Source: an uncultured Eubacteriales bacterium (GTDB lineage Bacteria; Bacillota; Clostridia; Oscillospirales; Acutalibacteraceae). Taken from it: a stretch of DNA of 64,000 nt. The stretch spans positions 13,433 through 77,432 of the forward strand of contig CATZCM010000003.1 in the NCBI GenBank assembly GCA_958417225.1. The letters run 5' to 3'. Under the pieces are notes generated by a model. That model did not search any database, was not told where the DNA came from, and saw nothing but the letters and a program-made list of their open reading frames with translations. Position numbers and translations under genes: made by a program. Shown here piece by piece: positions 7,746 through 42,459 of the stretch (the stretch's first letter is position 1; each line of letters begins with the position of its first letter).

Positions 7746-7776
7746 AGTGCCACTTCCTTTCCTTAATACTACATTT

Positions 7777-7805
7777 ATTATACCACATCATTTGTCCCAC
7801 GGCAA
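7777..7805 (-). promoter_or_regulatory. Promoter candidate for the AAA-ATPase gene
   Basis: Minus strand TTGCCG (7805-7800), 17 nt, TATAAT (7782-7777), with a TGG directly upstream of the -10 (extended -10 like). Confidence 0.5.
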
Positions 7806-8843: not shown

Positions 8844-8970
8844 ATATTTCCCTCCATCACTCACAAATTAACACATATTAAAAAAATATCTACTGTTATC
8901 CACATGGCACCATGTAAAACCTTGTTACTTTTTCAAATTATGCGCCAATACATGATGACACAATATATTA

Positions 8971-10134
8971 TTAGTAAGCTTCCTGTAAAATAGTCAAAAT
9001 TTCTTGTTTTGTCATTTTTTTGTATCCGCCACCAACTTCAGTCGAATTTGCAATCTTAGGAAGCATTTCTTCTGTAGCACCGATATCACGTAACCTAGTA
9101 GGAAGTTCCATCTTTTTTATAAATTCGTCAAGTTTTTCAATGCCCATAAGAGCTGCTTCATACTTGGGCATTGAATCAGTATCAACATCCCACATTTTTT
9201 TTGCAAAACGGGCAAACTTATCCCACCCAAACTTATATATATGCTTGTAATATGGAACAGACAAAACTGCAAGCCCCACTCCATGTGCGCAATTTGTATA
9301 TGCACTAAGCTGATGCTCAATCATATGAACTTGCCAATCCTGTCTCTTGGAAAGCCCCGTAATTTGATTAAGTGCCATAGTTGAGCACCACATGATATTA
9401 CTTTTAATTTCATAATTTCTAGGATTTCGCAAAGCAATTTCCGTACTGTGCCGTAATGATTGAAAAACACCTTCAATAATATAATCTGTTGTATTGTCAT
9501 CAAATCCAGTAAAATATTGCTCCATCAGATGCGACATCGCATCAAAAATTCCGCTCACCATCTGAAGTTTCGGAACTCCAAAGGTATAATTTGGGTTAAG
9601 AATTGAAAATTTAGGGTTCACTTCAGGAGGGAAAACTCTACCACATTTTATCATTTCATCCTCATTGGTAATTACTGAACCACCGTTCATCTCTGAACCA
9701 GTTCCTGAAAGCGTCGGTATACATCCTACTGGAATAATCTCATTATCCACATCTTCTTTATTCACCCAGTAACGTTGCCACGGATCACCTTTACAATGTG
9801 CAGATACGGAAATAGCTTTTGCACAATCAATCACCGAACCGCCACCCACTGCCAAAATAAGATCTATATTATTTTCTCTTGCAAATTTCGCACATTCCAT
9901 CATTTGTTTGTATGTTGGATTAGGTTTGATTCCAGATAGTTCAATAATATTTTTCCCCGAATTTTTAAGAACTTCCGACACTTGATCATATACAACAATT
10001 TTTTTTATCGAACCTTCACCGTATAAAAAAAGAATATTGTCTCCATAATTCTTAAGTTCCTCCGACAAATGTGATAAAGCAGTTTTACCAAAATAAACTT
10101 TGGTAGGATTGTAATAATAAAAGTCTAAAATCAT
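8971..10134 (-). CDS. Iron-containing alcohol dehydrogenase (butanol dehydrogenase / YqhD-like)
   Basis: 387 aa with ...LAVGGGSVIDCAKAI... and the His-rich metal motifs of Fe-ADH family III. Confidence 0.85.
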   Translation of the reverse strand: MILDFYYYNPTKVYFGKTALSHLSEELKNYGDNILFLYGEGSIKKIVVYDQVSEVLKNSGKNIIELSGIKPNPTYKQMMECAKFARENNIDLILAVGGGSVIDCAKAISVSAHCKGDPWQRYWVNKEDVDNEIIPVGCIPTLSGTGSEMNGGSVITNEDEMIKCGRVFPPEVNPKFSILNPNYTFGVPKLQMVSGIFDAMSHLMEQYFTGFDDNTTDYIIEGVFQSLRHSTEIALRNPRNYEIKSNIMWCSTMALNQITGLSKRQDWQVHMIEHQLSAYTNCAHGVGLAVLSVPYYKHIYKFGWDKFARFAKKMWDVDTDSMPKYEAALMGIEKLDEFIKKMELPTRLRDIGATEEMLPKIANSTEVGGGYKKMTKQEILTILQEAY

Positions 10135-10334
10135 TCCAGTACACTCCCCTTTTGTTTAATATTTGAAGATAATCAATGTTATCAATCAAACCATACAATA
10201 AATTCATTTTTCAAAATAAATACTATATCTTAATTCATTTAGAAAATCCACCATATGCTAAAAAATATTTATTTAACACAAGTTACAAACACCATGTAGT
10301 TTTTCTCATCAAATCAAATAAATACAAATTACAT

Positions 10335-10368
10335 AAAAAAGCCCAGCAAACACGTATAGTTTGCTAGG
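10335..10368 (-). terminator. Rho-independent terminator after tRNA-Ser
   Basis: Minus strand CCTAGCAAAC-TATACGT-GTTTGCTGGG followed by CTTTTTT. Confidence 0.65.
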
Positions 10369-10375
10369 TTTCAAT

Positions 10376-10464
10376 TGGCGGAGAGGATGGGATTCGAACC
10401 CATGTGCGATTACTCGCAAACTGATTTCGAGTCAGCCCCGTTATGACCTCTTCGATACCTCTCC
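10376..10464 (-). tRNA. tRNA-Ser (anticodon CGA)
   Basis: Folded by hand. Acceptor GGAGAGG/CCTCTCC; anticodon stem GCTGA/TCAGT with loop CTCGAAA; long variable arm TGCGA-GTAA-TCGCA; T arm ATGGG-TTCGAAT-CCCAT; discriminator G; encoded CCA. Confidence 0.9.
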
Positions 10465-10667
10465 ATATACATTTCAGCCAGCAAATTTCATTACTTTTCC
10501 AAAACTCCAAAAGAGTCAAAAGCTATTAAACTTACTTTTTGAAAATCCGCATTCGTATAAACACAAATTTATCAGTTCACACGATAAATTGATTATAGCA
10601 CACAAAATTCATTCTGTCAACATTTTTTTATAAAGGCGACACCAAAACGGCATCGCCTTAAAAAATC

Positions 10668-11705
<1,038 letters not shown>

Positions 11706-19355: not shown

Positions 19356-20358
19356 TCACAACCCATATAAAATTCGCGTTAATTTAAATCGCTTTAACAC
19401 AGCGGTGATAACGCTAACTACTCCCACCGCACACAAAAAGCTAATCATAACCTGTACTATCGGCAGCACTTTGCCATTCAACGGAATAATTGTCAGATAT
19501 ATAATCTGCTGATGGAACAAATAAATTCCAAAACTCTTTTCTTTCAATCCGTTCCATAATTTTGACTTTTTTGCATTGATTAGTTTTTCCGTAATCATTT
19601 TTACAGTGTAGTATACAAAAATCACTCCCATATACGAACACATATAACCTAAAATCAAATCAACCAATCGAACTACTATCGATGCCGTTGTATTAACCTC
19701 AATTGTGTTGTTAATCACAAAACAAACGATTGATCCAAAGCCACTTATTGGAATGCCCCACCAATTCTCTGTCTTTTTCCTGTAAAGTTACGCTCCAAGA
19801 TAGTAATATCCTGCGTATTTGACAGCTGTCGAAACTTGAAAAACATTAACACCTATCTTATCGAGCAGGTCCCCCCCCGATAGATATCAGAGCAACTGCA
19901 AGCATTCCTTTTGTTGATACATGCTTTTCATCCAAGATTCCGTAAAAAATGGCAAACAGCAAAAAGAGCATTGGAAGAAACCACAATTGTGATGGAGCAC
20001 ATCCAAGAACATATTTATATACTATTTTGGATAAGTCGAAGCCACTATAGTGTACATAAAACGGAATAACCCATGTTAACATCACGCAAAAGTATGGCAA
20101 CATAAGTCTTTTTCCTCTTTCCAGAATATCTTTTTCAAAATTAGTATATTTTCCTTTTTCTGTTCTTAAGCAATAAAATAAAAAGCCAGAGGCCATCGCA
20201 AAAGTTTGAACATGAAATGTATTCAACCACCGAGCAAAAATTGAAAGGTAACTTGCTTCATACACGGGTTTTACTCCATCGAACCAACTACCAGTAAAAA
20301 ACATGCACGAATGATAAAGTACAACCGCTAACATCATTAACACTTTTACATTATCCAT
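19356..20358 (-). pseudogene. Acyltransferase-3 family (O-acyltransferase) gene, disrupted
   Basis: N-terminal part (19858..20358) and C-terminal part (19356..19718) are both multi-TM Acyltransferase_3-like (..LMMLAVVLYHSCMFF.., ..GIYLFHQQIIYL..). The first part stops just after a G8 run. Removing one G gives ..ISIGGDLLDKIGVNVFQVSTAVKYAGYYYLGA, which enters the C-terminal frame but hits an in-frame TAA at 19790-19788. Confidence 0.8.
19871..19878 (-). repeat. Homopolymeric G8 tract (C8 on plus) at the acyltransferase frameshift site
   Basis: ccccccccc-type run read directly at 19871-19878. It is the longest G/C run I saw in the window. Confidence 0.9.
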
Positions 20359-20382: not shown

Positions 20383-21885
20383 TTATCTCCTTTTCACCTT
20401 TTCACATATCTTATGAAACATACTTTGCAACTTGTCCCGATAAAACACCATATTAAGTACGCAAACAATAACACTCCAAATAATAGCCGTTTTAGCCACA
20501 AGAATAACCCACTCAACATATGTAGCTCCTGGCATTGTAATCATTCTCGTTGCAAAAAAACCAATCAATACCGTCAACCCATCAACGAAAATTTGCTTTG
20601 TAAATTTTCTTAAAGGCCACTTAATCAAATTTTTTGAATCATATACTGCCACCCACACCGTCTGATACCCCATTGCAACTAAGGTCCCAATCGCAACTCC
20701 AATCAGTCCCCATACCTTTACTGTTACAACAGATACTACAATATTGAGAATTGCAGCAATAATATAATTATTTTGTGTCTGCTTATAATGACCCGCTGCA
20801 AGAATAACAATATTATATGGTAACCTTAAGCAATGACCTGCATTTGCAGCTACAATCAATGCCGCAAAAAGAGGCTGGATATAATTTGCGTCATGGATAC
20901 CAAGTGTATAAACTCTAACAAATGGAACAATTAAAATTGCTGTTAATCCAAATACAAAGGTCGTGCCAGTATGAATCACCCATTCTGTCCAGGAAAAAGT
21001 TTTGTTTAGTTTTTTAATTTCTTGTTTCGCCCATAGTTCACCAATTAAAGATGTAATTCCATTTGTCATAGATATAAATAACTGTTTTACACCTTTAACA
21101 ACCAAAAAATACACGGAATAAATAGATACATCTGATAATGTTGCAAATAATGTTAACACAATCGTATCCGTACCATCAAGAATAACAGCAGCAACATGCT
21201 GTGCAATGCCATTCCATTTTTGAGCAATCGGCTCTTTCGTGTATTTAATCTTCCTATCTATGCTATAATGATGCCGAACATATAGGTAAATTAAGAATGG
21301 CTGTAGCAAATATATAAGAGATGTAGTTAATTTGACAATCTGAATACTGCATCCCATACGAATTAAAATAAAGCAAGCTGCAGTATTACAAACAACCGCT
21401 AATGTCTGTGCATTATACTGAATATAACCACGCTGATCTGCCGTTAAGAGTAAGCGGTTAACAATCCCAAAAAAATATTGTGCAAAAGAACTAAGAGAAA
21501 TTGCCACAATCAATGTTGCTGTATAGATAAAGCCAAAGTCCTTTCCAGCAAACTGAGGATATACAATTACCAGCGCAATTACATATATTAGTAATATTTG
21601 ACCAAGTTTTGTAAAAAATTTATTGGCTGAAGCTATTATTTTACTAACATCTTTCTGATTCTTCTCCGCTAAAGGTTTATATAGTGCAGATTGAACAACT
21701 GCACCTACACCCAGTTCAAGGAAAGAAATTACTCCTAGGAACTGCGCAATTGAATTGACCAGTCCATTAACTTCTGAACCAAATGCATTTAAGATTAATC
21801 TGGGTAAAATAAACCCGCAAACTATGGTTGTCAGCTGAAATAACAACGATGACACCGTATTATATAACAATCTTTTTTGTCTCAT
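20383..21885 (-). CDS. wzx: Oligosaccharide flippase (Wzx, MOP superfamily)
   Basis: 500 aa with about 12-14 predicted TM segments. The N-terminus ...NTVSSLLFQLTTIVCGFILPRLILNAFGSEVNGL is typical of polysaccharide biosynthesis (PST) flippases. Confidence 0.75.
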   Translation of the reverse strand: MRQKRLLYNTVSSLLFQLTTIVCGFILPRLILNAFGSEVNGLVNSIAQFLGVISFLELGVGAVVQSALYKPLAEKNQKDVSKIIASANKFFTKLGQILLIYVIALVIVYPQFAGKDFGFIYTATLIVAISLSSFAQYFFGIVNRLLLTADQRGYIQYNAQTLAVVCNTAACFILIRMGCSIQIVKLTTSLIYLLQPFLIYLYVRHHYSIDRKIKYTKEPIAQKWNGIAQHVAAVILDGTDTIVLTLFATLSDVSIYSVYFLVVKGVKQLFISMTNGITSLIGELWAKQEIKKLNKTFSWTEWVIHTGTTFVFGLTAILIVPFVRVYTLGIHDANYIQPLFAALIVAANAGHCLRLPYNIVILAAGHYKQTQNNYIIAAILNIVVSVVTVKVWGLIGVAIGTLVAMGYQTVWVAVYDSKNLIKWPLRKFTKQIFVDGLTVLIGFFATRMITMPGATYVEWVILVAKTAIIWSVIVCVLNMVFYRDKLQSMFHKICEKVKRR

Positions 21886-21919: not shown

Positions 21920-22562
21920 TAATCCCTCAAGCTTCAACGATCAATCCCAATCCAATTTACGAGATAACCTCTTTCTAGTCTTTTCTCAAAGGTCTATCGC
22001 ACGCTTAATTCAAGTTGATTTCCCAGTTATCATTTCCTTCAATAAACACTGGGCCATTATCACTAATTGCCAAATCCCAACCAATTGCACAAATTCCATA
22101 AAGTGTCCTGTGTACACAGCAATCCAGTTTACAACCCCATGGTATTCAGGTATCTGAAATTTGCCAAATTTAATTTTGGTATTGGGGTTCATATCAATAT
22201 TTGTTCCATAAAAAGCTAAAAGCCATATTCTTTCAAATGCCCATTTTCGTTAATTTCAATAGACAAGCCACCTGTTGACCAACTATCTACAATTCCTGTT
22301 TCCTCAGTTCCTATACAAAGCAATCAGTAAATATGTCTTGCTATCTTTATTGCTAGTCACAATTTGATATACATTTATTGTGCTCGGAATATATAAAATT
22401 TATTGGATTCTCCATATTTTCTAGCCCACTCAACATTTTCCACAATTCTGTCGATTTCTGATTTCAGTTTTGCTTCAACCACTGCATTTTTCACCTAAAT
22501 ATTCCAATTACGCTTAGCCCAAATCTTTTTTAACGCAATTTTCAACTTTTCCTTGAATCCAA
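21920..22562 (-). pseudogene. Degraded sugar-transfer-associated ATP-grasp (ATPgrasp_ST-like) gene
   Basis: Recognisable pieces sit in different frames and are separated by stops: ..GIVDSWSTGGLSIEINENGHLKEYGF*.. and ..LYGICAIGWDLAISDNGPVFIEGNDNWEINLN*. Only ~200 codons remain. Boundaries are approximate. Confidence 0.55.
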
Positions 22563-22566
22563 TTAA

Positions 22567-23520
22567 TTAACGCCCCTGATATTTATTGATTTCACTATCA
22601 ACAATTCTTCCATCTTCAATAATGAGTGCATCTTTCAAAACTTCACCGTAAATTCCATTATTAAGTTCATTAATATATTTCCAAATCACTTCAGAATTGT
22701 TCCACGTGAATGTTTTATAAAATAGTGCCGGCGTATGATCCACAACATAATGCAAAACACCATCGATCATATATGTAGGTTTTTCTATCGTAGTTGGAAC
22801 ACTGGTTTCAATTCCGCCATTCCTATCACAACTCACGTCAATAAGCATCGAATTTTTCTTCATACGTTTCAAATCATCACGATAAATAATATGATCTTTT
22901 CTCATTATATCCCACAGAACGCAATTCACAATAACATCATACTGTCCCAGTTCATCCCGCAACAGTTCTTCCGTTCTTCGATCATACTGGCGAACATCAG
23001 CACCCAACATATTGAGAACTTTGATAGCACCTCGTGCGGTATTTCCACGACCAATAACTGCTACCTTTGTTTCATAAGGCATCTTTGCATAGCACTGAAA
23101 AGCGTGCATGACTGCTGCTTCACCTGCAAGTTCATTGTTTCGCCAAAAGATATGTCGTCCCTTTTGAAACATCTTCTCCCATGCAAATACAGTCAAATTG
23201 CCTGCAAGCAATTTATCAGTGATATCTCGATTCTGAGTTGCATGGACCCATCCAAAAATTGTTTGATAGTCAAGTTCTTGAAGATAATCAGCATCACCAA
23301 TTTTAGGATCACAGATAATATCTTTTAGTAAAACTTCGTCATGGGAAGCAATATAGCTACCACAGGCTTCATATTCTGAATCCTCAATGCCAAGTACATC
23401 ACCATAACCTTTTTCAAAATAAAGCAATTCAGGATGTTCAATATTTTTCAAATGTGCCGGAACAATAGCACGTCTATACTCGTTTTCCTTATGACTTATC
23501 GGAAATCCAACTGTTTTCAT
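22567..23520 (-). CDS. AlaDH/PNT-family dehydrogenase resembling N5-(1-carboxyethyl)-L-ornithine synthase (CEOS)
   Basis: 317 aa. MKTVGFPISHKENEYRRAIVP..., NAD(P) fold VAVIGRGNTARGAIKVLNMLGA. Size and layout fit the short CEOS-like branch rather than the ~370-aa alanine dehydrogenases. Confidence 0.6.
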   Translation of the reverse strand: MKTVGFPISHKENEYRRAIVPAHLKNIEHPELLYFEKGYGDVLGIEDSEYEACGSYIASHDEVLLKDIICDPKIGDADYLQELDYQTIFGWVHATQNRDITDKLLAGNLTVFAWEKMFQKGRHIFWRNNELAGEAAVMHAFQCYAKMPYETKVAVIGRGNTARGAIKVLNMLGADVRQYDRRTEELLRDELGQYDVIVNCVLWDIMRKDHIIYRDDLKRMKKNSMLIDVSCDRNGGIETSVPTTIEKPTYMIDGVLHYVVDHTPALFYKTFTWNNSEVIWKYINELNNGIYGEVLKDALIIEDGRIVDSEINKYQGR

Positions 23521-23588
23521 ACATTTTTCCTCCTTATAATAGGCAGAATAAAGTTCAAAAATACTCTTAGTTTAACTTTTTCACTCTT

Positions 23589-24212
23589 TTAATTTCTGTC
23601 AGTTCCGTGCTCATAAGCGGAACTGCACCATCCCTTAATAAATTTTCCTCCTTCAGTGCACGTGCTTCTACCTTTTTCACTGGCCCATAATTGTGAACAT
23701 TTCCAACTGTAAAACCACAGAGATATACTAACCATCGTCACTGAAAGAAAAACAACCATTGAAACTGATGTTGAATCACAAATATAGGTAAATTTTTCTC
23801 TTAAGACTTTTACTTTATCACTAAAGCGACGCATAACACCACCACCAAACAATGGGCTGAACGAATCAGAAAAGAAAATAAAGCACCCCAAAAACTAAAT
23901 CACAACATGAATTGCTTTTCTGCTTAAATTGCACTTATCAACAATACTTGTAAAGTTTTCAACCACACCACTTTTTTCATAATAAGCAACCATGATACCA
24001 ACCATAATGTTGACTGTTATCACCCAAATGAAATCCTCATTTCCAAGCAATGCTTTCAACAATTCTGTAAAACCAAATATACCCTGTCCTACAAGAAAGC
24101 AAACTAAAATACGTACTGTCGCTAATGACGCAATCGTATTTCTGGTAGCGAAATCCAGTATAACAGCAAGTGCAACTAGTACAATAGGTATCCATTCCAT
24201 CGTTCCCAACAT
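23589..24212 (-). pseudogene. Fragment of an NhaC-type Na+/H+ antiporter gene
   Basis: Two adjacent ORFs (23895..24212, 23589..23891). The second contains ..IFFSDSFSPLFGGGVMRRFSDKVKVLREKFTYICDSTSVS.., which resembles the NhaC motif (IFFDDYAN...MRP..D....SREKL.YIVDSTAAP). Only the first ~200 of roughly 450+ residues remain, ending in unrelated sequence. Confidence 0.55.
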
Positions 24213-24216
24213 AACC

Positions 24217-25584
24217 TTACCATCTCTTTTCTGGAAGAATTAACATTTCTCCCCAGTGTGCATCTGATTCCTTTAACAGATTTGCATCAAATCCACTGTC
24301 CGGATAAAAAGTCATTTCTCCGAAATACACCAAGCCATCAATACAGTACAAATCAACTCGCACATACGAAACTCCTTTACTCAGTTTTTCCGCAATAACG
24401 AACATCTCATCTATGCAATCAGGTTTGGGTAATGTAAAGCCCTCTGGAGCTTCTTTTCCACGGATATTATATTTTTTCAAATTCCATTCTTTATCAAAGA
24501 AATAGAATTTAGGGTGCCCCGTATCACGCTCGGTACATACCATGACGGATTCAGCGACACCATCAAAGCAGAAGAATTTATAATCTACTAATGCTTTTGT
24601 ATCTTTATTGTTGTAGTAAGAATTGGAAATAATTATTGAGCAACCGTCAGAATTTAGTCTGTACCCCCCGGTAGATAATTTGATCCATTCACCCAGCTTC
24701 AAATCCCACTCTTCAGGCTTAAATTCTTCAAATCCACTAGCTGGATAAAATGTAATCTCACCAAAATACACTTTTTCATTGATTTCATAAAAATCAATTC
24801 TTGCAAAAGGCATTTTTTCAGAAAGCTTTGCAGCTAATTTTTTCATCAATTCATACTGTTTTGGACGCTGAATCGGTAAGATAGCGTTGCCATGAGCAGG
24901 TCTTTGTACATTCAGATGGTTCCATGCTTCGTCGTAAAAATCTTCTTTTAAGCCATCTTTTGTAAAACGCTCACTACACACCAGTGTCATACGAGGCACA
25001 CCATCAAAGCAGAACAATTTATAATCACGTAAATCGTCTGCCATATATTGTTCGGCAATAATTCTGTGTGGGACATTTTTATAAGGCCATTCGCGTCCAT
25101 TATAAAAATAATCATGCTTAAGCGACATATTTATTTTCTTTTTCGCCATAGCTATATCCAATTTAGACTTATCTCTACATATAACAAGTCCACCACTGTC
25201 ATGAGTACATTTCAACACAAACTGATTTGGAAGAGCATCAAAATCAATACCATCAAAATTATCCCACACTCCCAGTGTTGGTATGATATACTCTTTTCCG
25301 ATTTTATCAGCAACATACTCCTTTACTGCATACTTATCAACCATTGTTGTGTATTCTGGCTTTCTGTCATAGAGTCTAAGCCACTGAAGTTTCTGATTAA
25401 ATGTTTTTGGATTTTTCAAATCGAGCTCTTCATTCATCATTACCGGATAGTACATCTTTAGGAATACTTTATCTGGTAGTAATGGTAAGATTCCAGCGAC
25501 TCTGAAGCATTTTATAATAATTTTATAGAATATAAATTTGGGTCTGATACCCATATGTCTATTTCTCGATTTTATTCCGCCCAT
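24217..25584 (-). CDS. ATP-grasp fold amidoligase (TupA-like), one full domain plus a second C-terminal half-domain
   Basis: Residues ~35-310 form a complete TupA-like unit (..KNPKTFNQKLQWLRLYD.., ..VLKCTHDSGG.., ..DYKLFCFDG.., ..RIDFYEINEKVYFGEITFYPASGF..). Residues ~335-455 repeat the second half (..DYKFFCFDG.., ..RVDLYCIDGLVYFGEMTFYPDSGF..). The start could be ATG 25554 instead of 25584. Confidence 0.75.
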   Translation of the reverse strand: MGGIKSRNRHMGIRPKFIFYKIIIKCFRVAGILPLLPDKVFLKMYYPVMMNEELDLKNPKTFNQKLQWLRLYDRKPEYTTMVDKYAVKEYVADKIGKEYIIPTLGVWDNFDGIDFDALPNQFVLKCTHDSGGLVICRDKSKLDIAMAKKKINMSLKHDYFYNGREWPYKNVPHRIIAEQYMADDLRDYKLFCFDGVPRMTLVCSERFTKDGLKEDFYDEAWNHLNVQRPAHGNAILPIQRPKQYELMKKLAAKLSEKMPFARIDFYEINEKVYFGEITFYPASGFEEFKPEEWDLKLGEWIKLSTGGYRLNSDGCSIIISNSYYNNKDTKALVDYKFFCFDGVAESVMVCTERDTGHPKFYFFDKEWNLKKYNIRGKEAPEGFTLPKPDCIDEMFVIAEKLSKGVSYVRVDLYCIDGLVYFGEMTFYPDSGFDANLLKESDAHWGEMLILPEKRW

Positions 25585-26162
25585 GTGACACCCTTCTTAA
25601 TAATTTTTGCAGGCACACCTACTACCATTGAACATGGTTCATCAATCTTTCCGGAAACAATTGAGCCGGCACCTACTATCGTATTATCAGCTATAGAACT
25701 ACCTTTTAAAATCTTTACGCCTAACCCAATCCAAACATGCTTACCAATTGAGACACTAGCATCTGGATTAATACGTTTTCCCATAGCGTCAAAAATATAA
25801 TGATAATCCGTGGAATGAATTTCTATATTGTTGGATAACAAAGAATTCTCTCCTATACTAATTTTAGTCCCATTGCAAGCATTAATTACTGTTGGTTGTA
25901 ATGGTGAAGCGTTTATATGTACTCCTCTTCCCAAGATGATCTCGTTATTATTTCCTTGAAGTAACATACGAACTCCGTTTAACGAACACCCATTGCTTAT
26001 GACCAATTTATTGTTACTACCAATAATTCGAATGCGGCAGTTCTGAATTTTAGAGGAAAAATCACGTTCTACTACATTCCCTCCCCCCCGAATTATTATT
26101 TTATTTTTCCCAAAATAAAATAATAGAATATTTCTAATTCTTTTCAATTTATTCTTATCCAT
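25572..26162 (-). CDS. Hexapeptide-repeat (LbH) O-acetyltransferase
   Basis: Left-handed beta-helix repeats and the C-terminal ..IGKHVWIGLGVKILKGSSIADNTIVGAGSIV..VVGVPAKIIK. Contains a G7 run (C7 at 26083-26089) that is currently in frame. Confidence 0.8.
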   Translation of the reverse strand: MDKNKLKRIRNILLFYFGKNKIIIRGGGNVVERDFSSKIQNCRIRIIGSNNKLVISNGCSLNGVRMLLQGNNNEIILGRGVHINASPLQPTVINACNGTKISIGENSLLSNNIEIHSTDYHYIFDAMGKRINPDASVSIGKHVWIGLGVKILKGSSIADNTIVGAGSIVSGKIDEPCSMVVGVPAKIIKKGVTWAE

Positions 26163-26193: not shown

Positions 26194-27099
26194 TTAAGAA
26201 TGACCAATAACCAAAAACTTAGGATTACCCATAAGGTCATTTCCTAAATCTCCTACATCATTAATTGTAAATCCATTTTTCCAAAGAATATAAGGAAACG
26301 GTATCTGATCTCTTTTAGTATTACTTCTTAAATATTCTTTCCACCACTGCTCAGTAATCTTTCTGGCATTTGGATTTTTTAAATCATATACAATAACTGT
26401 TGCTTCACACAAACCAAAATTCTCTGGAAAACCTTCATCTCGAAATCTTTGAAGTTGCTCCTGAATCTTCTCGAAATTTCCTCTTTTATAATATTTACAC
26501 GCCAATGCCTCTTGGTAAGCGCACTCGCGCTCATGATGACGATGCATTGCGATCCCAGTTTTTGATTTTTCTGCAATACTGCAAATGGTTGACACATCAG
26601 ACAATACCTTCACATTGCCATCCGTATATATTGCAAAATCATACCCGTGAAAAACATCAAATGGATGAAATTTATAATATCTGTTGGCGTCACTGATATA
26701 TTCGCCACAATCAATTAAATGTTCTTTCCATATACCCGTATTACCATTCAAACTATCTGTAAAAATATGATAAGTTGTATCATCACCGACATAGATAGGT
26801 TGCTTAACAACGTCATAGCCTCCAGTTATGCATCCATACACCGCAATTTTGGCATTCTCAATCAGTTCACCAAAATTATAATAGGGCTTATAATTTTTTA
26901 TGGATTTAACAAATTTTCTAATTTTTTTATCACCGGTTTTAGAAAGTAGTTTTTTTCTAAGTAATCTATGTCGGTCCTTGGAACTTGCTTCCTTCAGGCG
27001 CTTAATATTACGAACTAATCTTACAACTGACGAATGATATAAGGTAATATAATCTTTAAATAATTCTTCATTTTTTATTATCTGATCTATATCCTTCAT
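26194..27099 (-). CDS. DUF616-type putative glycosyltransferase
   Basis: ..IAVYGCITGGYDVVKQP..YHIFTD..YYKFHPFDVF..YDFAIYTDGNVKV..QIPFPYILW.. matches the DUF616 pattern as I recall it. Confidence 0.65.
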   Translation of the reverse strand: MKDIDQIIKNEELFKDYITLYHSSVVRLVRNIKRLKEASSKDRHRLLRKKLLSKTGDKKIRKFVKSIKNYKPYYNFGELIENAKIAVYGCITGGYDVVKQPIYVGDDTTYHIFTDSLNGNTGIWKEHLIDCGEYISDANRYYKFHPFDVFHGYDFAIYTDGNVKVLSDVSTICSIAEKSKTGIAMHRHHERECAYQEALACKYYKRGNFEKIQEQLQRFRDEGFPENFGLCEATVIVYDLKNPNARKITEQWWKEYLRSNTKRDQIPFPYILWKNGFTINDVGDLGNDLMGNPKFLVIGHS

Positions 27100-27101: not shown

Positions 27102-28196
27102 TTATCTCCTCACATTAACAAATCCATCAAACATAAATACCGGTTTTAATACTGTTTCATATGGGCAATAGATATAAGATATCATCACAAGCAATACCAT
27201 TAACACTAAAATAAAAATTATTTTATCCCGTGAATATCTTGGAGGTGTTATGTACATTCCAGTAATGACAAACAGTATTGAATATCCCATTTCCAGAAAT
27301 CTATGGTAATTTCTGTCAAGTAACAAGAACGGCAATGTCAACAGTAATATTTCTATTGCCATGCCATTATAATTTGCCACATAGAAAGAACTATCATCAG
27401 ATGAAATTGTTGTGCCCTCAAAAGCTCTATTCGATAACAAATATGAAGAAAGAATATAAGCCATTAACCAAACAATAAATATCAGCACAATCCATGTTAA
27501 GGATGAGGGAGTGATACTATCAGTCAGATATCTTGCTGATAACCTCGGATTTAAATACCGGCTGACTATACTCACAATAGGATTAAGGAATATTACCATG
27601 AATAAAGTCAATCCAGCAGTAATCAAAACAAATAGTTTTCTGTCATAATGTTTCATTTTAACCAGCAGAAGCAGTAAAAACATCACACATGAAATATGAA
27701 TGAGAAAAGCTACTGCAATAAATCCTAGATATTTCACCCTTGAAAGTTTTTCACTGGTAACTAATATGCTGTATCCAACAAAAACAACGCAAAAAGCAGT
27801 GAAAAATTTAAACTGCACCAACTGAATTATTGATGGAAATATCAAAAATAAGCCAAAGTACAAATTTTCATTTCCACCAAGGCGTCGTACAGCATTATGC
27901 ATCAAATAATAATCTAAAAACAGCATGACAACTACCATGCCTCTATAGTTGAACCCGATAAAATAAAACAATTTATTTAGACACGCCCAAATAACTCCTG
28001 TTGTTTGAGCCGCAACCGGTAATTCAACATAATTAACATATTCAAACAAAGGAACATAGTTGCTTAAATCTGCATAGGACGTAGAAGTAACTGGAAGGAA
28101 TGCCATTAAAGATGCGGCAAGTACCCATGTGGATTTTTCTGTTCTCTTAATAAACAGAATATAGAAGATAAATATGGCATATGGAATTATCAGCAT
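27102..28196 (-). CDS. wzy: EpsG-family membrane protein / putative Wzy polymerase
   Basis: 364 aa, about 10 TM segments, low-complexity hydrophobic, located between glycosyltransferases in a Wzx-containing locus. Confidence 0.6.
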   Translation of the reverse strand: MLIIPYAIFIFYILFIKRTEKSTWVLAASLMAFLPVTSTSYADLSNYVPLFEYVNYVELPVAAQTTGVIWACLNKLFYFIGFNYRGMVVVMLFLDYYLMHNAVRRLGGNENLYFGLFLIFPSIIQLVQFKFFTAFCVVFVGYSILVTSEKLSRVKYLGFIAVAFLIHISCVMFLLLLLVKMKHYDRKLFVLITAGLTLFMVIFLNPIVSIVSRYLNPRLSARYLTDSITPSSLTWIVLIFIVWLMAYILSSYLLSNRAFEGTTISSDDSSFYVANYNGMAIEILLLTLPFLLLDRNYHRFLEMGYSILFVITGMYITPPRYSRDKIIFILVLMVLLVMISYIYCPYETVLKPVFMFDGFVNVRR

Positions 28197-29314
28197 TATC
28201 TTCTCTCCTCGAACTCATCTAACGAATCTTTTATCGCCTTCAGGTATTCATATCTATACTTCTCATCTGGTTCCAGATATCCCCCTTCTGCCCACTCATT
28301 CCAGGCAAAGATAAATACCATATCCTGCTTAAACTCCTTCTCTGCTTTATCAAGTAGTTGTGTAAAGAACTTTTTAAAATCCACAGGATTTGCATTTTCT
28401 ACTACCATTCCTCTTTTGCCTTTTCTTGGAGTATTATCCCAATCAACGAAAGCACACGGAACACTAATTGATGTGTTAGTCTTTGAATTAAGAATATAAT
28501 TCCAAATTTCTGCATAATCGCATCTTTGTAGTCCTTTGAGAACCTGAAGTTTTTCTCTCATGTTGAATTTTAATCTCTTTTCAACAAAAACCAAAAAATC
28601 TTTTTTGATGCGTTGTAACAGTGACAGATTTTTCAATGCAAAAACCCAGTTCGGCTGATATTCTATTGCATAACTAAACAGTTCATCATGCCGATTACTG
28701 CTTAAATAATAGCTAACATTCTGATATGCGTATTCAATACCGTCAAATCCATTTTGTTTTGCCAACTGGTTCCAGTAAGTCAACATTTCATCTAAGCAAT
28801 CTATAAGTTCAGGTCTATAGATAACAAGGAGTGGTTTATTATTATTTACTATATATCTATCATCTTTGAAATAATCTAACAAGTAATCAAAATGTTCTTT
28901 CCACTCATTTTTTCCACCATAGGACTGCTGCATAATTACATCAGCAGAGCCATTAGCCCACGTGTTTGTCCAACTTTCATTTGCCCAACAAAGGCAGAAA
29001 TGTGTATCCAACTCTTTTCTTTGCAAAAATGCTTCTACCGGTTTTTCTAATAGTTTTTTTCCCGAAAACCAGTAATGATAGAAGCAGAATCCATAGATGC
29101 CATATTCGTTTGCCAATTCTACTTGCCACTTCATCGTCTCAGGGTCTAACAAATTATAATAATTTTTATTCAAGGGGACTCTTGGCTGATAGTGATTTGG
29201 AAATAATGGTGTTGCTTTTTTTACATTTACCCATTCAGTAAACCCCTTTCCCCACCATTTATCATTTTCAGGAATACTATGGAATTGTGGCAGATAAAAC
29301 GCAATTACCTTCAT
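28196..29314 (-). CDS. WbsX-like glycosyltransferase (GH99-like domain)
   Basis: MKVIAFYLPQFHSIPENDKWWGKGFTEWVNV... is the hallmark WbsX N-terminus. Start set at ATG 29314, giving an ATGA overlap with the upstream stop. Confidence 0.75.
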   Translation of the reverse strand: MKVIAFYLPQFHSIPENDKWWGKGFTEWVNVKKATPLFPNHYQPRVPLNKNYYNLLDPETMKWQVELANEYGIYGFCFYHYWFSGKKLLEKPVEAFLQRKELDTHFCLCWANESWTNTWANGSADVIMQQSYGGKNEWKEHFDYLLDYFKDDRYIVNNNKPLLVIYRPELIDCLDEMLTYWNQLAKQNGFDGIEYAYQNVSYYLSSNRHDELFSYAIEYQPNWVFALKNLSLLQRIKKDFLVFVEKRLKFNMREKLQVLKGLQRCDYAEIWNYILNSKTNTSISVPCAFVDWDNTPRKGKRGMVVENANPVDFKKFFTQLLDKAEKEFKQDMVFIFAWNEWAEGGYLEPDEKYRYEYLKAIKDSLDEFEERR

Positions 29315-30663
29315 GAAACACTCTCCTTTTTCATTTTGCATACTTCTTCATACATTAATAGAATTTTATGACAATGCTCATCAAACGACTCGAAATTACC
29401 CTTAAGAATATTACAGTTCATTATTTTCAAACAATCTCGATTAGATATAATCTTTAAAAGGACACCTTCAAAATTCTTCTCGTTAATAATAAAACCATTT
29501 TTTTTATCTTGTACTAAGTCTCGGGCGCCTACACTGTCCGAGACAACAACCGGGACTCCATAGCTCAATGCCTCTAATACTGTAAATCCAAAAGTCTCAT
29601 AACACACACTCGGTGCAACAAGAATATCGGATTCATCCATTATTTTCTCCAGTTGAGAATAATCATATCTATCACCATGCTTTTTGATATAACTCCTTTC
29701 CATTGGTGTATAAGTATATATATTTAGCAGAAAATTATTATTGCTTAAGCTCACACTATCTAGAGTTTTGATAAGCCAATCAAATCCTTTTATAGAAGTT
29801 GCCGGACCTAAATAGGTTATTCTTAGCTTTGCCGAATCAAATGCCTTCTCCTTTCGATGGTCTTTAACATCCAAGTGCGAAATATTGACTATATCACCTT
29901 TTAAAGAAGGAAGTTCTCTATGGAATACCCATTCAGTTACAGAACTATTGAAATGAAACCAGTCAATCTTCTCAAATGTTTTAGCGTATTTATGCTTCAA
30001 ATTCTTATAAAATGACAAATCATTTACTGTAATACCCTCAGATACATTATCTGTCTGTTCAATTTTCTTTTTTGCAGTGCCTTTAATTTCAAGAAACAGT
30101 TTATTTTTCCGCAGCTTACAAAATAGCTTAGAATGGATAATATATGTTTTCGCTCGTGAAAAAGCATATTTATTACATTTCGGGCAGTCTACACAGCTAT
30201 TCCAATTTTCACATTTTTTATTATGGTAAACATATATTTGTTTTGGGCATAATCCAAAATAATCATGTGTTGTATATATTGTTGGAATATTCAACTCATT
30301 TGCAGCATCAATAAACTCCTCATACAGTCCAATCATTGTATGAATATGTATCACTTCAATTTTATTCTTTTCAAAAAAATTCTTCCACATGGAAGTAAGA
30401 GTATGCTTTGTTAAGTATTCCTTATCTTTCAATCCAAACAGCATTGGTAGACTTAATGGATTAACAATTGAATATACAGGCACTCCTTTTTTATTTTTTT
30501 CTCTTTTTATCGATACCTTACTGCTTAACAACCTGTATTCACCTGGATATAGAATCATAACGCTGTTGTCCTTAGATTGACACGCAACTAAATCATCTAC
30601 ATATTTTGTTAATCCACCACCCCGGTTTTCTCCAAGGCCAACGGTATAGTGTAATATCTTCAT
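29311..30663 (-). CDS. Family 4 (GT-B) glycosyltransferase
   Basis: 450 aa. N-terminus MKILHYTVGLGENRGGGLTKYV and C-terminal E..G....EA...G.PVV motif (..ETFGFTVLEALSYGVPVVVSD..). Confidence 0.75.
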   Translation of the reverse strand: MKILHYTVGLGENRGGGLTKYVDDLVACQSKDNSVMILYPGEYRLLSSKVSIKREKNKKGVPVYSIVNPLSLPMLFGLKDKEYLTKHTLTSMWKNFFEKNKIEVIHIHTMIGLYEEFIDAANELNIPTIYTTHDYFGLCPKQIYVYHNKKCENWNSCVDCPKCNKYAFSRAKTYIIHSKLFCKLRKNKLFLEIKGTAKKKIEQTDNVSEGITVNDLSFYKNLKHKYAKTFEKIDWFHFNSSVTEWVFHRELPSLKGDIVNISHLDVKDHRKEKAFDSAKLRITYLGPATSIKGFDWLIKTLDSVSLSNNNFLLNIYTYTPMERSYIKKHGDRYDYSQLEKIMDESDILVAPSVCYETFGFTVLEALSYGVPVVVSDSVGARDLVQDKKNGFIINEKNFEGVLLKIISNRDCLKIMNCNILKGNFESFDEHCHKILLMYEEVCKMKKESVS

Positions 30664-30721: not shown

Positions 30722-31552
30722 TTAAAAACTACCTTCATATTTTTTATTGAACAGCTTTGCTTTTAAAAAAGCGGATCCTTTCTTCCTCCAATTGATTTTC
30801 TCCATATGCATATATGGTAATTCTTTAATTTCTTCTTTTTTTAAACGTCCTGATTTTATCTGATAATCCACCCATACATTAAAGATAATCTCTGATACTC
30901 TGCCATAAAATCTCCCTTTAAAGGCACTGAGCGAAGTGGAGTCAATCCGTTTTTCTAATTCAAATAAAATGTCAAATAACCATGTGCAATATTCATTCAA
31001 CAGACTTTTCTCGGCAATCATCATATTAAACATATATCCGTAACGATGCTTGAGTACATGATCGCAACTGTCTAAATACTGAGGATATTTTTCCTTTATA
31101 ATTTCTCTCGTTTCATCTATCTGATTGGAATAATGGGTGTGTTTATAATGACTATATAATGTTTCTATATAATATCTTCGTTTGCTTGGAACAAACAATT
31201 TCACTCTTCCAAAATAAGGCTTAATTTCGTTATACGTGAGAATCCCTTTCCACGGATCATTACCTTTTTTCTTTCCAAAATGCCGTCTATAATGTGCAAG
31301 TCCAATGTAATCATCTTCAATGTTTTTCCATGCCCAATATAAACCTGTAAGCTCACAGAAACTTGCATTAAGTTCAGATATATTATCACCAGTGTTGTCT
31401 TTTGCATAACCAAGATTCAGTTCATTATCAGCACTATCTATTTTTCCCTCAGCACCTATATGTAGAGGAAGGTACATTTCATCATCTGGCATTCTATATT
31501 TTTTATGTGTTGCTACAACTATCTTGACCGTTTTTCCTTTTTCCATATTCAT
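30722..31552 (-). CDS. DUF4422-family putative glycosyltransferase
   Basis: ..VKIVVATHKKYRMPDDEMYLPLHIGAEGK...FCELTGLYWAWKN..DYIGLAHYRRHF.. is typical of DUF4422. Confidence 0.7.
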   Translation of the reverse strand: MNMEKGKTVKIVVATHKKYRMPDDEMYLPLHIGAEGKIDSADNELNLGYAKDNTGDNISELNASFCELTGLYWAWKNIEDDYIGLAHYRRHFGKKKGNDPWKGILTYNEIKPYFGRVKLFVPSKRRYYIETLYSHYKHTHYSNQIDETREIIKEKYPQYLDSCDHVLKHRYGYMFNMMIAEKSLLNEYCTWLFDILFELEKRIDSTSLSAFKGRFYGRVSEIIFNVWVDYQIKSGRLKKEEIKELPYMHMEKINWRKKGSAFLKAKLFNKKYEGSF

Positions 31553-32557: not shown

Positions 32558-33808
32558 TTAATCTCTCTGGAAAATATCCCTCGTATAAACCTTGTCCTTC
32601 ACATCATCCAGACACTTGTCATAACGGTTTGCGATTATGGCCTGACTCTGCTTTTTGAATTCATCCAAGTCATTAACAACCTTGCTGCCAAAGAAAGTAT
32701 CGCCATCTTTCAAGGTCAGCTCGTAGATAATGACCATTGCGCCTTTTGCCTTGATGCGCTTCATAACGCCTTGAATAGAGCTCTGGCGGAAGTTATCGCT
32801 GTTGCTCTTCATGGTAAGGCGATAAACGCCAACAACAACTTCCTTTTCCTTGCTCTCATCCCAGCTGTCATTCGCTTCATAAGCACCTGCGATTTCCAGT
32901 ACACGATCAGCGATGAAATCTTTACGAGTTCTGTTGCTCTCAACAATCGCTTCAATCAAGTTCTCCGGCACATCTGCGTAGTTGGCCAGCAACTGTTTAG
33001 TGTCTTTCGGCAGACAGTATCCGCCATAGCCAAAGGACGGATTGTTATAGTGAGTACCAATACGAGGATCAAAACAAACACCGTTGATGATCTGCTGAGT
33101 ATTCAGCCCCTTTATCTCAGCATAGGTATCGAGTTCGTTAAAATAGCTGACACGCAGAGCCAGATAGGTGTTGGCGAACAGCTTAACTGCCTCTGCCTCG
33201 GTGAAGCCCATGAATAGAGTGTCGATATGCTCCTTAATTGCACCCTCCTGCAGAAGTTCTGCAAAAGTGTGTGCGGCATTCACCAGACGAGCATTATTCA
33301 CATCAGTGCCAACGATAATACGGGAAGGATAAAGATTATCGTACAGCGCTTTGCTCTCACGAAGGAATTCCGGGCTGAAGATGATGTTGTCACAGTGGAA
33401 TTTCTCACGAACACTTACAGTGTAGCCAACCGGAATCGTAGACTTGATAACTATGATCGCTTCCGGATTGTACTCAATAACCAGCTTGATCACAGATTCC
33501 ACCGCACTGGTGTCGAAAAAGTTCTTCTTGCTATCGTAGTTGGTAGGTGCAGCAATTACGACAAAATCAGCATCACTGTACGCTTCCTTCGCATCAAGGG
33601 TAGCCGTTAAGTCCAGTTCTTTTTCTGCCAGATACTTTTCGATACATTCGTCCTGAATCGGAGACTTTTTATTATTGATAAGTTCAACTTTCTCAGGAAT
33701 GATATCTACAGCCGTCACCTTATGGTGCCGAGACAACAACGTAGCAATGGAAAGGCCAACATAACCCGTACCAGCTACCGCAATTTTCAAATCTTTAAAA
33801 TCTTTCAT
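32558..33808 (-). CDS. ugd: UDP-glucose 6-dehydrogenase
   Basis: 416 aa. [20 protein letters not shown].., catalytic region ..[14 protein letters not shown]... Confidence 0.9.
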
Positions 33809-33829
33809 TTTTCTAACCCTCTATTTTCC

Positions 33830-34879
33830 TTATTTGTAAAACTCAGCGTACCACTCAGCGAACTTTCTTAATCCAGTTCTCAGGCTTGTGCTCGGTTTGT
33901 AACCGAAGTCACGTTCCAGTGCACTGGTGTCTGCATAGGTCACAGGCACATCACTCGGCTGCATCGGAACCAATTCCTTGTGAGCCTCGAAGTCATAATC
34001 TTCCGGCAGAACCTTAGCACGGACCAGTTCTTCAGAAAGAATCTGTACGAAGTCCAACAGGTTCCCCGGATTCTGGTTACCAATGTTGTAAACGGAATAC
34101 GGCGGAATCGGCAGACCATCCTCGCCGTTCTTCTTGTCTGGGGCTTTTTTCATCACACGGACAACACCCTCAACAATATCGTCCACATAAGTAAAGTCAC
34201 GCTTGCAGTTGCCGTAGTTGAAGATCTTGATGGTCTCCCCTTTCACCAGCTTGTTGGTGAAGCCAAAGTAAGCCATGTCAGGACGGCCTGCCGGACCATA
34301 CACGGTAAAGAAACGCAGACCGGTAGAAGGAATGTTGTACAGTTTTGAGTAGGCGTGAGCCATCAGCTCATTAGATTTCTTGGTGGCTGCATAAAGAGAA
34401 ACCGGATTATCCACCTTGTCTTCAGTGCTATACGGGACTTTCTTGTTGGAACCATAAACAGAAGAAGAAGAGGCATAAACCAGATGTTCCAGATTCTCAC
34501 TACGGCGACAGGCTTCTAGAATATTGAAAAAGCCGACCAAGTTGGATTCCACATAAGCATCCGGGTTGGTGATGGAGTAGCGCACACCAGGCTGTGCCGC
34601 AAGGTTGACGACCACAGACGGCTTGTACTTCTCGAACAGCTCGGTGACCAGTGCCTTGTCAGCAATGTTGCCTTTGATAAAGGTAAACATGGGATACTTG
34701 GCCAGTTCGTTCAGACGGAACTCTTTCAGCACCACGTCGTAGTATGCATTCATGTTGTCGATACCGATAACTGTAGCAGAAGGTGCTTCCTGATAAATTC
34801 GTTTCACAAGGTTAGAGCCAATAAATCCGGCTGCGCCTGTGACTAAAATTGTTTTGTTTTCCAAAGATACAGTGCTCAT
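33830..34879 (-). CDS. NAD-dependent epimerase, UDP-glucuronate 4-epimerase type
   Basis: ..ILVTGAAGFIGSNL.., YASSSSVYG, YAATKK. Strongly resembles Cap1J/LpsL/Gla-type UDP-GlcA 4-epimerases and is adjacent to ugd. Start set to ATG 34879 (GAGG 9 nt upstream). Confidence 0.8.
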   Translation of the reverse strand: MSTVSLENKTILVTGAAGFIGSNLVKRIYQEAPSATVIGIDNMNAYYDVVLKEFRLNELAKYPMFTFIKGNIADKALVTELFEKYKPSVVVNLAAQPGVRYSITNPDAYVESNLVGFFNILEACRRSENLEHLVYASSSSVYGSNKKVPYSTEDKVDNPVSLYAATKKSNELMAHAYSKLYNIPSTGLRFFTVYGPAGRPDMAYFGFTNKLVKGETIKIFNYGNCKRDFTYVDDIVEGVVRVMKKAPDKKNGEDGLPIPPYSVYNIGNQNPGNLLDFVQILSEELVRAKVLPEDYDFEAHKELVPMQPSDVPVTYADTSALERDFGYKPSTSLRTGLRKFAEWYAEFYK

Positions 34880-34905
34880 TTTTATTTTCCTCACTCATAT
34901 ATCTA

Positions 34906-35561
34906 TTTATTGTTCTTTAAACACGTCTTCATACTGTCCGCAAATTTTATCCCATGTGTATTCTTCTGCCACACGCTTCTCTGCTCTCCAACCCATCTCT
35001 GCAATTTCATCTGCGCTCATTTGAACAGATAGCAAGGCCGCAATATTTGACCATCATCTGCCCAGAAATCTTCCAGTATTTCCGAATTGGTGCGGACCAC
35101 TTCGCTCTCATCCACTCATGTCCATCCGGATTCAAGTACACAGTACCGCCCAGTTTATGGATTTCTTTGTAGAAATGAGAGGCAAAGGGTCCGATGTGAC
35201 ATGTCATTATGTAGACAATCGGATGAGGAATATGATTTTTCTTAATATGCTCGCAGCACACTTTCAGTGCAGTAACATCATAATAAATTGCCTGTGCAGG
35301 CCCAATTTGAGGAACATCTATTTTGAAACAGTGGGCATTGTGGAGTTCAATTTCGTGGTCGTTGATCTTTGTCACGCCTCTAAACTCGTTCTCATCCATA
35401 CAGCCATCTCCATTGGCTTTACAGGCAACATGATATTTGATGTTCTCTTTATTCTGGTGATACTCCGTGAGCTTATAAACGAACGTTTCATAACCGCCAT
35501 ATGCTCCGAGGCTTTTTGCGCCCACAAGATATATATGCTGCACTTCTTTTTTTGAATTCAT
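34906..35561 (-). pseudogene. DUF1972/GT4 rhamnosyltransferase-like glycosyltransferase with a large internal deletion
   Basis: N-terminus MNSKKEVQHIYLVGAKSLGAYGGYETFVYKL...GTVYLNPDGHEWMRAKW...MMVKY is the DUF1972 half. The ORF stops at 35007. In another frame it is followed by only the last ~35 residues of a GT4 domain (..SADEIAEMGWRAEKRVAEEYTWDKICGQYEDVFKEQ*). From memory, homologs are roughly twice this length. Confidence 0.7.
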
Positions 35562-42442: not shown

Positions 42443-42459
42443 TTATAACACCTCACTCT

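Follow-up and report, generated by a model that had tools for sequence, protein, structure and literature searches.

The 64,000-nucleotide stretch analysed here (hereafter the window), from an uncultured Eubacteriales bacterium of the Acutalibacteraceae, carries nearly all of its genes on the minus strand, where a polysaccharide locus extends from ~19.3 to 39.4 kb. On this one strand, according to the window gene map, Wzx/Wzy and glycosyltransferase genes are accompanied by a TupA-like ATP-grasp ligase gene, a candidate amine-building gene and genes for UDP-uronic acid. The candidate amine builder encodes a short reductase of the alanine dehydrogenase/pyridine nucleotide transhydrogenase (AlaDH/PNT) fold that resembles N(5)-(carboxyethyl)ornithine synthase (CEOS). 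The window holds a decayed copy of a four-gene cassette, of which only this ligase and reductase core survives. The cassette and the gene that follows it are laid out in transcription order as follows, with protein lengths in amino acids (aa):

24217-25584 (-): TupA-like ATP-grasp gene, intact, 455 aa (PF14305)
23535-24212 (-): NhaC-family transporter pseudogene, 5' part (tblastn, frame translation)
22567-23520 (-): CEOS-like AlaDH/PNT-fold oxidoreductase gene, intact, 317 aa (PF01262, PF05222)
21960-22323 (-): ATPgrasp_ST pseudogene, C-terminal remnant (PF14397 on joined pieces)
20383-21885 (-): multi-pass membrane protein gene, 500 aa, flippase candidate

The surviving core and its decayed neighbours

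The ligase gene, whose start overlaps the upstream acyltransferase gene by 13 nucleotides, encodes a predicted TupA-like ATP-grasp amidoligase with a putative role in uronic-acid amidation. Its product matches PF14305 in two stretches (E 1.4e-96; 323.1 bits, cut-off 25), residues 65-302 spanning positions 2-241 of the 241-position profile, and consists of an N-terminal half and, behind it, a C-terminal half that is present twice (residues ~185-310 and ~330-455). The duplicated half retains the DYK...R.D...GE motifs, with the motif residues kept in both copies, and K125, K139, E178, R409, D411 and E423 are invariant among 11 homologues in an alignment of TupA-like proteins. The same duplicated form, 441-457 aa long, occurs in three related loci (L001, L008, L037), most TupA partners elsewhere being 296-320 aa, and in L038 the gene is split into open reading frames (ORFs) of 296 and 108 aa. 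Ratios of dN/dS against orthologues lie between 0.09 and 0.11; among solved structures, none matches the window protein.

The 317-aa reductase shows the two-domain AlaDH/PNT fold (PF01262, E 6.4e-22; PF05222, E 7.9e-11) and has no hydrophobic segment. With 86.8 bits it falls far short of the 391.85 required by TIGR00518, the equivalog model for alanine dehydrogenase. In pairwise BLASTP it is 29% identical over 298 residues to the RefSeq-annotated CEOS of Lactococcus cremoris (E 1e-38), compared with 25% identity and 50 gap positions for a Ligilactobacillus AlaDH (E 3e-26). L-alanine dehydrogenase (TIGR00518) thus has its fold and catalytic residues in common with the reductase at ~25% identity, but carries two extra segments (~50 residues), which the alignment shows to be missing alike from the window clade and from Lactococcus CEOS. 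Five residues (E14, R16, K73, H93 and D228) are invariant in this alignment, and the last four align with what we take to be the residues of AlaDH that bind pyruvate and act in catalysis (Arg, Lys, His and Asp). Lactococcus lactis CEOS (EC 1.5.1.24; ~310 aa) shares with the reductase its fold, the deletions and this catalytic Arg/Lys/His/Asp set. To our knowledge, it is the only biochemically studied short AlaDH-fold enzyme of its kind, condensing pyruvate with the side-chain amine of ornithine or lysine.

Lactococcus CEOS is the best-scoring named relative among Firmicutes, and the annotated plasmid genes of highest identity are mostly RefSeq-named N(5)-(carboxyethyl)ornithine synthase, at 34% (an Escherichia coli plasmid) and 28-29% (Lactococcus, Vagococcus), with bona fide ald at ~25%. 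NCBIfam holds no CEOS-specific model. One Vescimonas plasmid relative, 30.5% identical, is named alanine dehydrogenase and retains one of the two segments missing from CEOS. By sequence, then, the reductase is nearer to Lactococcus CEOS than to alanine dehydrogenase and is predicted to be a functional CEOS-type member of the AlaDH/PNT superfamily, an opine-type synthase, with dN/dS of 0.05-0.14 against orthologues; a plain alanine dehydrogenase was considered and rejected on the TIGR00518 score and the deletions in common with CEOS. The residue at the end of beta-2 varies within the reductase clade (D, S, T or Y), so a preference for NADH or NADPH is not callable.

The 696 bp between the two intact genes are not a spacer but the remnant of an NhaC-family gene. 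Frame-1 translation recovers the first ~264 codons of a 467-aa gene with a single in-frame stop, 50% identical to residues 1-264 of the intact 467-aa protein of L002 (tblastn, E 5e-69), and blastn against the intact cassettes of L033 and L037 shows that the 3' ~200 codons were lost through a ~610-bp deletion. A Pfam search gave no match for the remnant itself; intact homologues match PF03553 (E 4e-51) and, weakly, ArcD/NhaC models. The ATPgrasp_ST remnant is spread over three reading frames, and its joined pieces match positions 163-260 of 278 in PF14397 (E 3.4e-14), that is, the C-terminal ~40% of a 353-369-aa protein. Intact queries from L009, L016 and L020 align to it only at residues ~230-369 (tblastn), ~650 bp of the 5' part having been lost by blastn comparison with intact cassettes, and L033 carries an intact ATPgrasp_ST gene at the position of the remnant. 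Contigs from six separate samples that encode an identical reductase protein show the same layout, pseudogenes included; the layout is therefore not an assembly artefact.

The genes for uronic-acid supply lie further upstream:

33830-34894 (-): SDR epimerase gene (PF01370)
32558-33808 (-): ugd, UDP-glucose 6-dehydrogenase gene (NF011631, TIGR03026, three UDPG_MGDP_dh Pfam domains)

The ugd product scores 571 bits against NF011631 and 306 bits against TIGR03026 (cut-off 189.8) and is predicted to supply UDP-glucuronic acid (UDP-GlcA). The adjoining gene probably encodes a UDP-GlcA 4-epimerase supplying UDP-galacturonic acid (UDP-GalA), judging by its best PDB sequence matches, 5u4q (E 1.3e-109) and Bacillus cereus 6zl6 (E 5e-42), the latter entered in the PDB as an 'epimerase domain-containing protein' and taken by us to be a UDP-GlcA 4-epimerase. 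The same pair occurs in L008, L023 and L006. At 44.5% GC (ugd) and 47.2% (epimerase), it stands above the flippase, reductase, TupA and glycosyltransferase genes, which have 32-37%. Among curated models Ugd fits the enterobacterial PRK15057 best, and the pair on the E. coli plasmid matches at 61% (ugd) and 51% (epimerase) identity; together these features suggest horizontal acquisition of the supply genes.

An earlier note on this DNA had listed four elements, namely ugd with a UDP-GlcA 4-epimerase, a TupA-like amidoligase, a remnant of a second, sugar-transfer-associated ATP-grasp and a short AlaDH/PNT enzyme resembling CEOS. All four lie at or close to the positions given there, the supply genes spanning 32558-34894; as an account of the locus the list was incomplete, since it missed the NhaC remnant, the decay of a four-gene cassette and the further pseudogenes.

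Recurrence of the pair in related loci

The co-occurrence of the two genes, which the earlier note had put forward for survey, was scored across 96 genome and metagenome loci with hidden Markov models built for the purpose, at least 1.5 kb of upstream sequence being required. Linkage by identity to the window reductase was as follows:

Identity 65% or more, 23 loci: TupA within 3 kb in 21/23; ligase within 300 bp in 19/23
Identity 56-64%, 28 loci: TupA or ATPgrasp_ST within 3 kb in 17/28
Identity 55% or less, 18 loci: TupA or ATPgrasp_ST within 3 kb in 5/18

Among close relatives the pair is conserved and often translationally coupled. A minimal intact pair, TupA followed by reductase with overlapping or abutting stop and start codons, is found in L001, L012, L017 and L023, and the two codons are similarly placed in L011. 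Pairing persists across differing glycosyltransferase backgrounds in the clade of at least 65% identity, and the wider association of ligase, reductase and UDP-uronic acid genes recurs in L008, L011, L012, L023, L033, L035 and L006.

Fuller versions of the cassette are also preserved. L033 and L034 carry it intact in the order of the window (EpsG, TupA of 308 aa, NhaC of 467 aa, reductase of 317 aa, ATPgrasp_ST of 356 aa, flippase of 499 aa), with epimerase and ugd after it; L037 has TupA of the duplicated type (441 aa), NhaC, reductase and flippase, and L035 has TupA, reductase and ATPgrasp_ST. The module can do without the transporter and without the second ligase. The 499-aa genes at the flippase position of L033 and L037 are 68% and 74% identical in DNA to the window gene, and homologues of its product at 50-80% identity flank the reductase gene in L001, L002, L008, L014 and L023. 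The window protein itself, with ~11-12 hydrophobic segments and no Pfam match, probably serves the locus as its Wzx-type flippase; its gene is conserved downstream of the cassette.

The cassette lies in recombination-prone territory rich in insertion sequences (IS). In L002-L005 (7145-8320), an IS110-family transposase gene stands between a second TupA gene and the NhaC gene, with ugd fragmented downstream, and in L001 IS66 elements directly follow the reductase gene. The CEOS-like genes of L008 (10001-10975) and L020 (7543-8568) are each broken into two ORFs, through a frameshift or stop; the reductase, too, can thus be the part of the module that decays.

Homologues of the reductase are abundant in metagenomes (~3,800 at E<=1e-5), the best 120 clusters all being 80-92% identical; clustering at 50% leaves only 77 clusters at E<=1e-30. 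Relatives of 60-85% identity in genome collections are almost all uncultured Clostridia (Lachnospiraceae, Oscillospiraceae, Acutalibacteraceae, Christensenellaceae), the nearest being Lachnospiraceae and Oscillospiraceae metagenome-assembled genomes (MAGs), and contigs that state their source in the title come from human-gut, animal-gut or fermentation metagenomes.

More distant reductases sit beside an ATPgrasp_ST or RimK-like gene, in loci that also contain a flippase gene, or have an unclassified ATP-grasp gene or a fused ATP-grasp domain as partner; in all, the pairings involve four ATP-grasp families and also take the form of a fusion protein. In two loci scored as ligase-less, L058 and L076, the reductase gene is preceded by a flippase gene and immediately followed by one for a RimK-like ATP-grasp, and P0183 (784 aa) joins an N-terminal ATP-grasp_4 domain to a terminal CEOS-like domain. 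P0194 (990 aa) likewise ends in a CEOS-like C-terminal part, after a 650-aa N-terminal region without Pfam match whose motifs, by eye, resemble carboxylate-amine ligases; this protein is of low complexity, AT-rich and eukaryotic- or giant-virus-like. At 55% identity or less the contexts are mostly non-glycan, with relatives beside LDH and GNAT genes (L021), a GGDEF gene (L019) or oxidoreductases (L022). L032, the 4032-bp Vescimonas coprocola plasmid pMM50_01, holds only genes of the Asp/Glu-racemase family, an AlaDH/CEOS-like type (the relative of 30.5% identity) and the NhaC family; reductase-NhaC pairing therefore also exists outside glycan loci. In a fermentation metagenome (L085:6789-8960), a CEOS-like gene of 55% identity lies directly downstream of a PGA_cap gene (CapA-like, poly-gamma-glutamate capsule).

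Proposed decoration, known systems and alternatives

The chemistry that the pair might perform is best approached through Campylobacter jejuni, where uronic-acid amidation has been proven experimentally for a TupA-like domain, so far that of Cj1438C alone (PMC11800379). The C-terminal TupA-like domain of Cj1438 carries out ATP-driven amidation of the C6 carboxylate of glycan-bound GlcA, and its amines, serinol phosphate or ethanolamine phosphate, are built by dedicated enzymes of the same cluster (PMC11800379). This glucuronamide pathway of the HS:2 capsule combines a TupA-like amidoligase with dedicated amine-building genes in a glycan locus, and it is by analogy with it that the window reductase is proposed as a dedicated amine builder. 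However, the amine builders of C. jejuni are the pyridoxal-phosphate enzymes Cj1437 and Cj1436 with the phosphatase Cj1435, in whose place the window has a reductase of the AlaDH/PNT fold; the window TupA is a stand-alone protein, not joined to a glycosyltransferase as the amidoligase of Cj1438 is; and the host of the window, unlike C. jejuni, is a Firmicute with Wzx/Wzy-type genes.

The predicted product has its counterpart among the O-antigens of Proteus and Providencia, in which a uronic acid is amide-linked to a carboxyethylated basic amino acid, although these systems are Gram-negative and the window belongs to a Firmicute. Carboxyethyl-lysine is a constituent of the O-antigens of Providencia alcalifaciens O23 and Proteus mirabilis O13. 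Providencia rustigianii O14 carries N-epsilon-(1-carboxyethyl)-N-alpha-(galacturonoyl)-lysine, an amide of GalA; in Proteus O-antigens GalA is found amidated with unmodified lysine, and uronic acids can also carry alanine in amide linkage (PMC10609480). A Gram-positive polymer joining uronic acid and amino-acid components is represented by the teichuronopeptide of Bacillus halodurans, whose synthesis protein TupA is the namesake of PF14305. Teichuronopeptide involves polyglutamate, and we know of no reductase partner of B. halodurans TupA. CEOS of Lactococcus acts on free amino acids, its products being free intracellular opines, and its gene is carried on a plasmid among stress-protein genes, whereas the window reductase is encoded in a glycan locus.

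A further parallel lies on the E. coli plasmid p2017-01-4CC_1 (NZ_AP027746.1), in a capsule-type locus where an ATP-grasp gene overlaps the RefSeq-named CEOS gene (34% identical to the reductase) and flippase, glycosyltransferase, EpsG, epimerase and ugd genes follow downstream. Unlike in the window, its ATP-grasp is not TupA-like and wza-wzb-wzc export genes are present. The upstream hypothetical protein is an ATP-grasp of another type, according to its motifs and the RefSeq annotation in a second record, with marginal PDB matches of PurD and PurK type (E about 0.5); a TupA-like identity was rejected for two hypothetical proteins of this locus, at hhalign probabilities of 0.2% and 0.1%. This type of locus is rare, occurring in 2 of 5426 E. 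coli genomes.

On these grounds the TupA-like and CEOS-like genes are read as the surviving core of a portable decoration module in Wzx/Wzy-type loci of gut Clostridia, in which an N-carboxyalkyl amino acid formed by the reductase is joined by TupA to a uronic acid through an amide bond, a reading given an even chance of being correct. Ugd and the 4-epimerase would supply UDP-GlcA and UDP-GalA, and a glycosyltransferase would set the uronic acid into the repeat unit. The CEOS-like enzyme would join a 2-oxo acid to the side-chain amine of a basic amino acid by NAD(P)H-dependent reductive condensation, the partners most likely being pyruvate and either lysine or ornithine if CEOS is a guide, to yield an N-(1-carboxyethyl) amino acid (an opine). 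With ATP, the TupA-like ligase would then activate the C6 carboxylate of the glycan-bound uronic acid and form an amide to the alpha-amino group of the opine. In full cassettes, the NhaC-family transporter may import the amine substrate and ATPgrasp_ST may form one more amide bond; the resemblance of the transporter to ArcD-type arginine/ornithine antiporters (60-63 bits, far below the cut-off) would fit uptake of a basic amino acid, a speculative point. All of these steps, from the keto acid and the amine through the order of condensation and ligation to the amide with GalA or GlcA, are proposed by analogy, and the end product would equal the carboxyethyl-lysine amide of GalA in P. rustigianii O14 (PMC10609480).

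Several observations weigh against this proposal. At only 29% identity to CEOS, specificity is not transferable to the reductase, and the AlphaFold2 model (21 close homologues; pLDDT 63.7, pTM 0.53) is too poor for pocket analysis. A nucleotide-sugar 6-dehydrogenase gene is often near the pair, which favours the proposal, but within 8 kb it is seen in only 9 of the 23 close loci, many of them on short contigs. In L018, a Clostridia MAG from horse faeces, a HAD hydrolase and a class I/II aminotransferase gene stand between TupA and the CEOS-like gene (7198-10954) and recall the serinol-amide pathway, so that an amino-donor role is possible there. Moreover, in the window both the NhaC and the ATPgrasp_ST genes are pseudogenes, the glf, DUF1972 glycosyltransferase and acyltransferase (Acyl_transf_3) genes are also pseudogenes or truncated, which makes five such cases within 20 kb, and no gene for an initiating phosphoglycosyl transferase was found within the window. 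With several locus genes decayed and no initiating transferase, the glycan may be altered or not made in this strain.

Should the locus be a relic, the decoration would no longer be made here, whatever the module does elsewhere, and the odd internal duplication of the TupA gene could be added to the pseudogenes and the missing transferase in its favour. Against this, the two core genes stand intact, as do ugd, the epimerase gene and those for the flippase, the polymerase and four glycosyltransferases; contigs from six separate samples repeat the identical layout; intact TupA-reductase pairs exist elsewhere without the accessory genes; and purifying selection acts on the duplicated TupA form, which L001, L008 and L037 have conserved. 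A relic is distinctly unlikely. Lower still is the chance that the reductase merely hitch-hikes, forming with NhaC a self-contained opine/compatible-solute or redox-balancing module without a glycan role, as the non-glycan surroundings of relatives at 55% identity or less (L021, L019, L022), the 4-kb Vescimonas plasmid with its racemase, AlaDH-like and NhaC genes only, and the location of the Lactococcus CEOS gene outside a glycan locus would allow. That account sits poorly with a directly adjacent ligase gene, often with codon overlap, in 19 of the 23 loci of at least 65% identity, with pairing to four ATP-grasp families and a fusion protein, with purifying selection, and with a transporter that has decayed in the window where the reductase has not.

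Other alternatives concern the reaction itself. The same product could be reached in reversed order, TupA first linking lysine, ornithine or another diamine and the CEOS-like enzyme then carboxyalkylating the side-chain amine that stays free on this residue, by then glycan-bound or lipid-linked; the plain lysine-GalA amides of Proteus beside the carboxyethyl-lysine form of Providencia fit such a stepwise route (PMC10609480). Tight TupA/reductase gene coupling is equally compatible with either order, but in C. jejuni the amine is finished before ligation, and a soluble cytoplasmic reductase working on a lipid-linked glycan would be without precedent in the AlaDH/PNT fold. CEOS, moreover, takes free amino acids as substrates. 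The reversed order has a small but appreciable chance. A divergent amino-acid dehydrogenase, joining a 2-oxo acid and ammonia into an ordinary amino acid such as L-alanine for use by TupA or as an aminotransferase donor, would accord with the AlaDH/PNT fold and its full catalytic residue set, with the aminotransferase and HAD genes of L018 and with the existence of uronic-acid alanine amides (PMC10609480). It is nonetheless unlikely, given the TIGR00518 score, the two segments missing as in CEOS and the absence of an aminotransferase from most loci, the window included; alanine, furthermore, is already present in cells, and a dedicated, strongly conserved glycan-locus gene would be hard to justify.

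Returning to the opine-amide reading, the decoration interpretation of the earlier note is partly supported, and the comparative data strengthen it. A broader generalization, in which a mobile module of two to four genes is common to gut Clostridia (Lachnospiraceae, Oscillospiraceae, Christensenellaceae and others), consists of a CEOS-like opine synthase and a TupA-like amidoligase with optional NhaC importer and second ATP-grasp ligase, and installs opine amides on capsular or cell-wall uronic acids, is advanced more tentatively, at somewhat less than an even chance. It would provide the first genetic basis for a decoration known only chemically from Proteus and Providencia, and a general logic of CEOS-like reductase plus ATP-grasp across Firmicutes, Proteobacteria and fusion proteins.

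In the literature searched, which included the Proteus O-antigen gene-cluster paper with its supplements and from which subscription carbohydrate journals were mostly absent, no CEOS-like or AlaDH-like gene was tied to glycan decoration and no gene was assigned to the carboxyethylation step of carboxyethyl-lysine-type substituents. The ligase chemistry and the glycan chemistry are each known; new within that literature are the CEOS-like reductase as the amine-building partner of a uronic-acid amidoligase and the portable cassette of gut Clostridia. Amide decoration of uronic acids alters the charge and antigenicity of bacterial surface glycans, and in Proteus and Providencia such substituents are part of the serotype-defining O-antigen structure. 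If correct, the proposal would explain an orphan glycan modification, predict that common commensals have capsules of zwitterionic or extra-acidic chemistry, with possible consequences for immune recognition and phage adsorption, and offer a directly testable enzyme pair for glyco-engineering.

Remaining features of the locus

The other genes of the locus, from the upstream end, are:

39375 down to 35886 (-): rmlA, rmlB, rmlD, rmlC, in transcription order
35007-35561 (-): DUF1972 glycosyltransferase gene, truncated to 184 aa
31927-32497 (-): glf (UDP-galactopyranose mutase), two fragments
30722-31552 (-): DUF4422 gene (Pfam match)
29311-30663 (-): GT4 gene (Pfam match)
28196-29341 (-): WbsX glycosyltransferase gene (Pfam match)
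27102-28196 (-): EpsG-family polymerase-like gene (Pfam match)
26194-27099 (-): TOD1/MUCI70-like gene (Pfam match)
25572-26162 (-): hexapeptide-repeat acyltransferase gene, 196 aa (PF00132)
19356-20358 (-): Acyl_transf_3 pieces, a 166-aa truncated ORF and a separate 120-aa ORF (19356-19718)

The hexapeptide-repeat acyltransferase matches WbbJ-like and maltose/galactoside O-acetyltransferase models below their cut-offs, and the 120-aa ORF has no Pfam match. Between the genes of the cassette region, all on the same strand, a scan found terminator-like sites not above chance; promoter and terminator counts at chance level are silent either way on co-transcription.

The horse-faeces locus L018 has the set of parts known from the C. 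jejuni serinol-amide pathway together with a CEOS-like reductase gene. Directly upstream of rmlA in the window lie two tandem ABC exporter genes (40247-44616, minus strand), beyond which stands a 206-aa ORF (44633-45253) without a family match; a C39 peptidase domain at the N-terminus of one exporter is of the kind usual in bacteriocin or peptide export. Placement of the window in the phylum Bacillota is supported by its mcsA-mcsB-clpC and SpoIID genes, and housekeeping genes such as recA, cysS, ligA and gap lie in the flanks.

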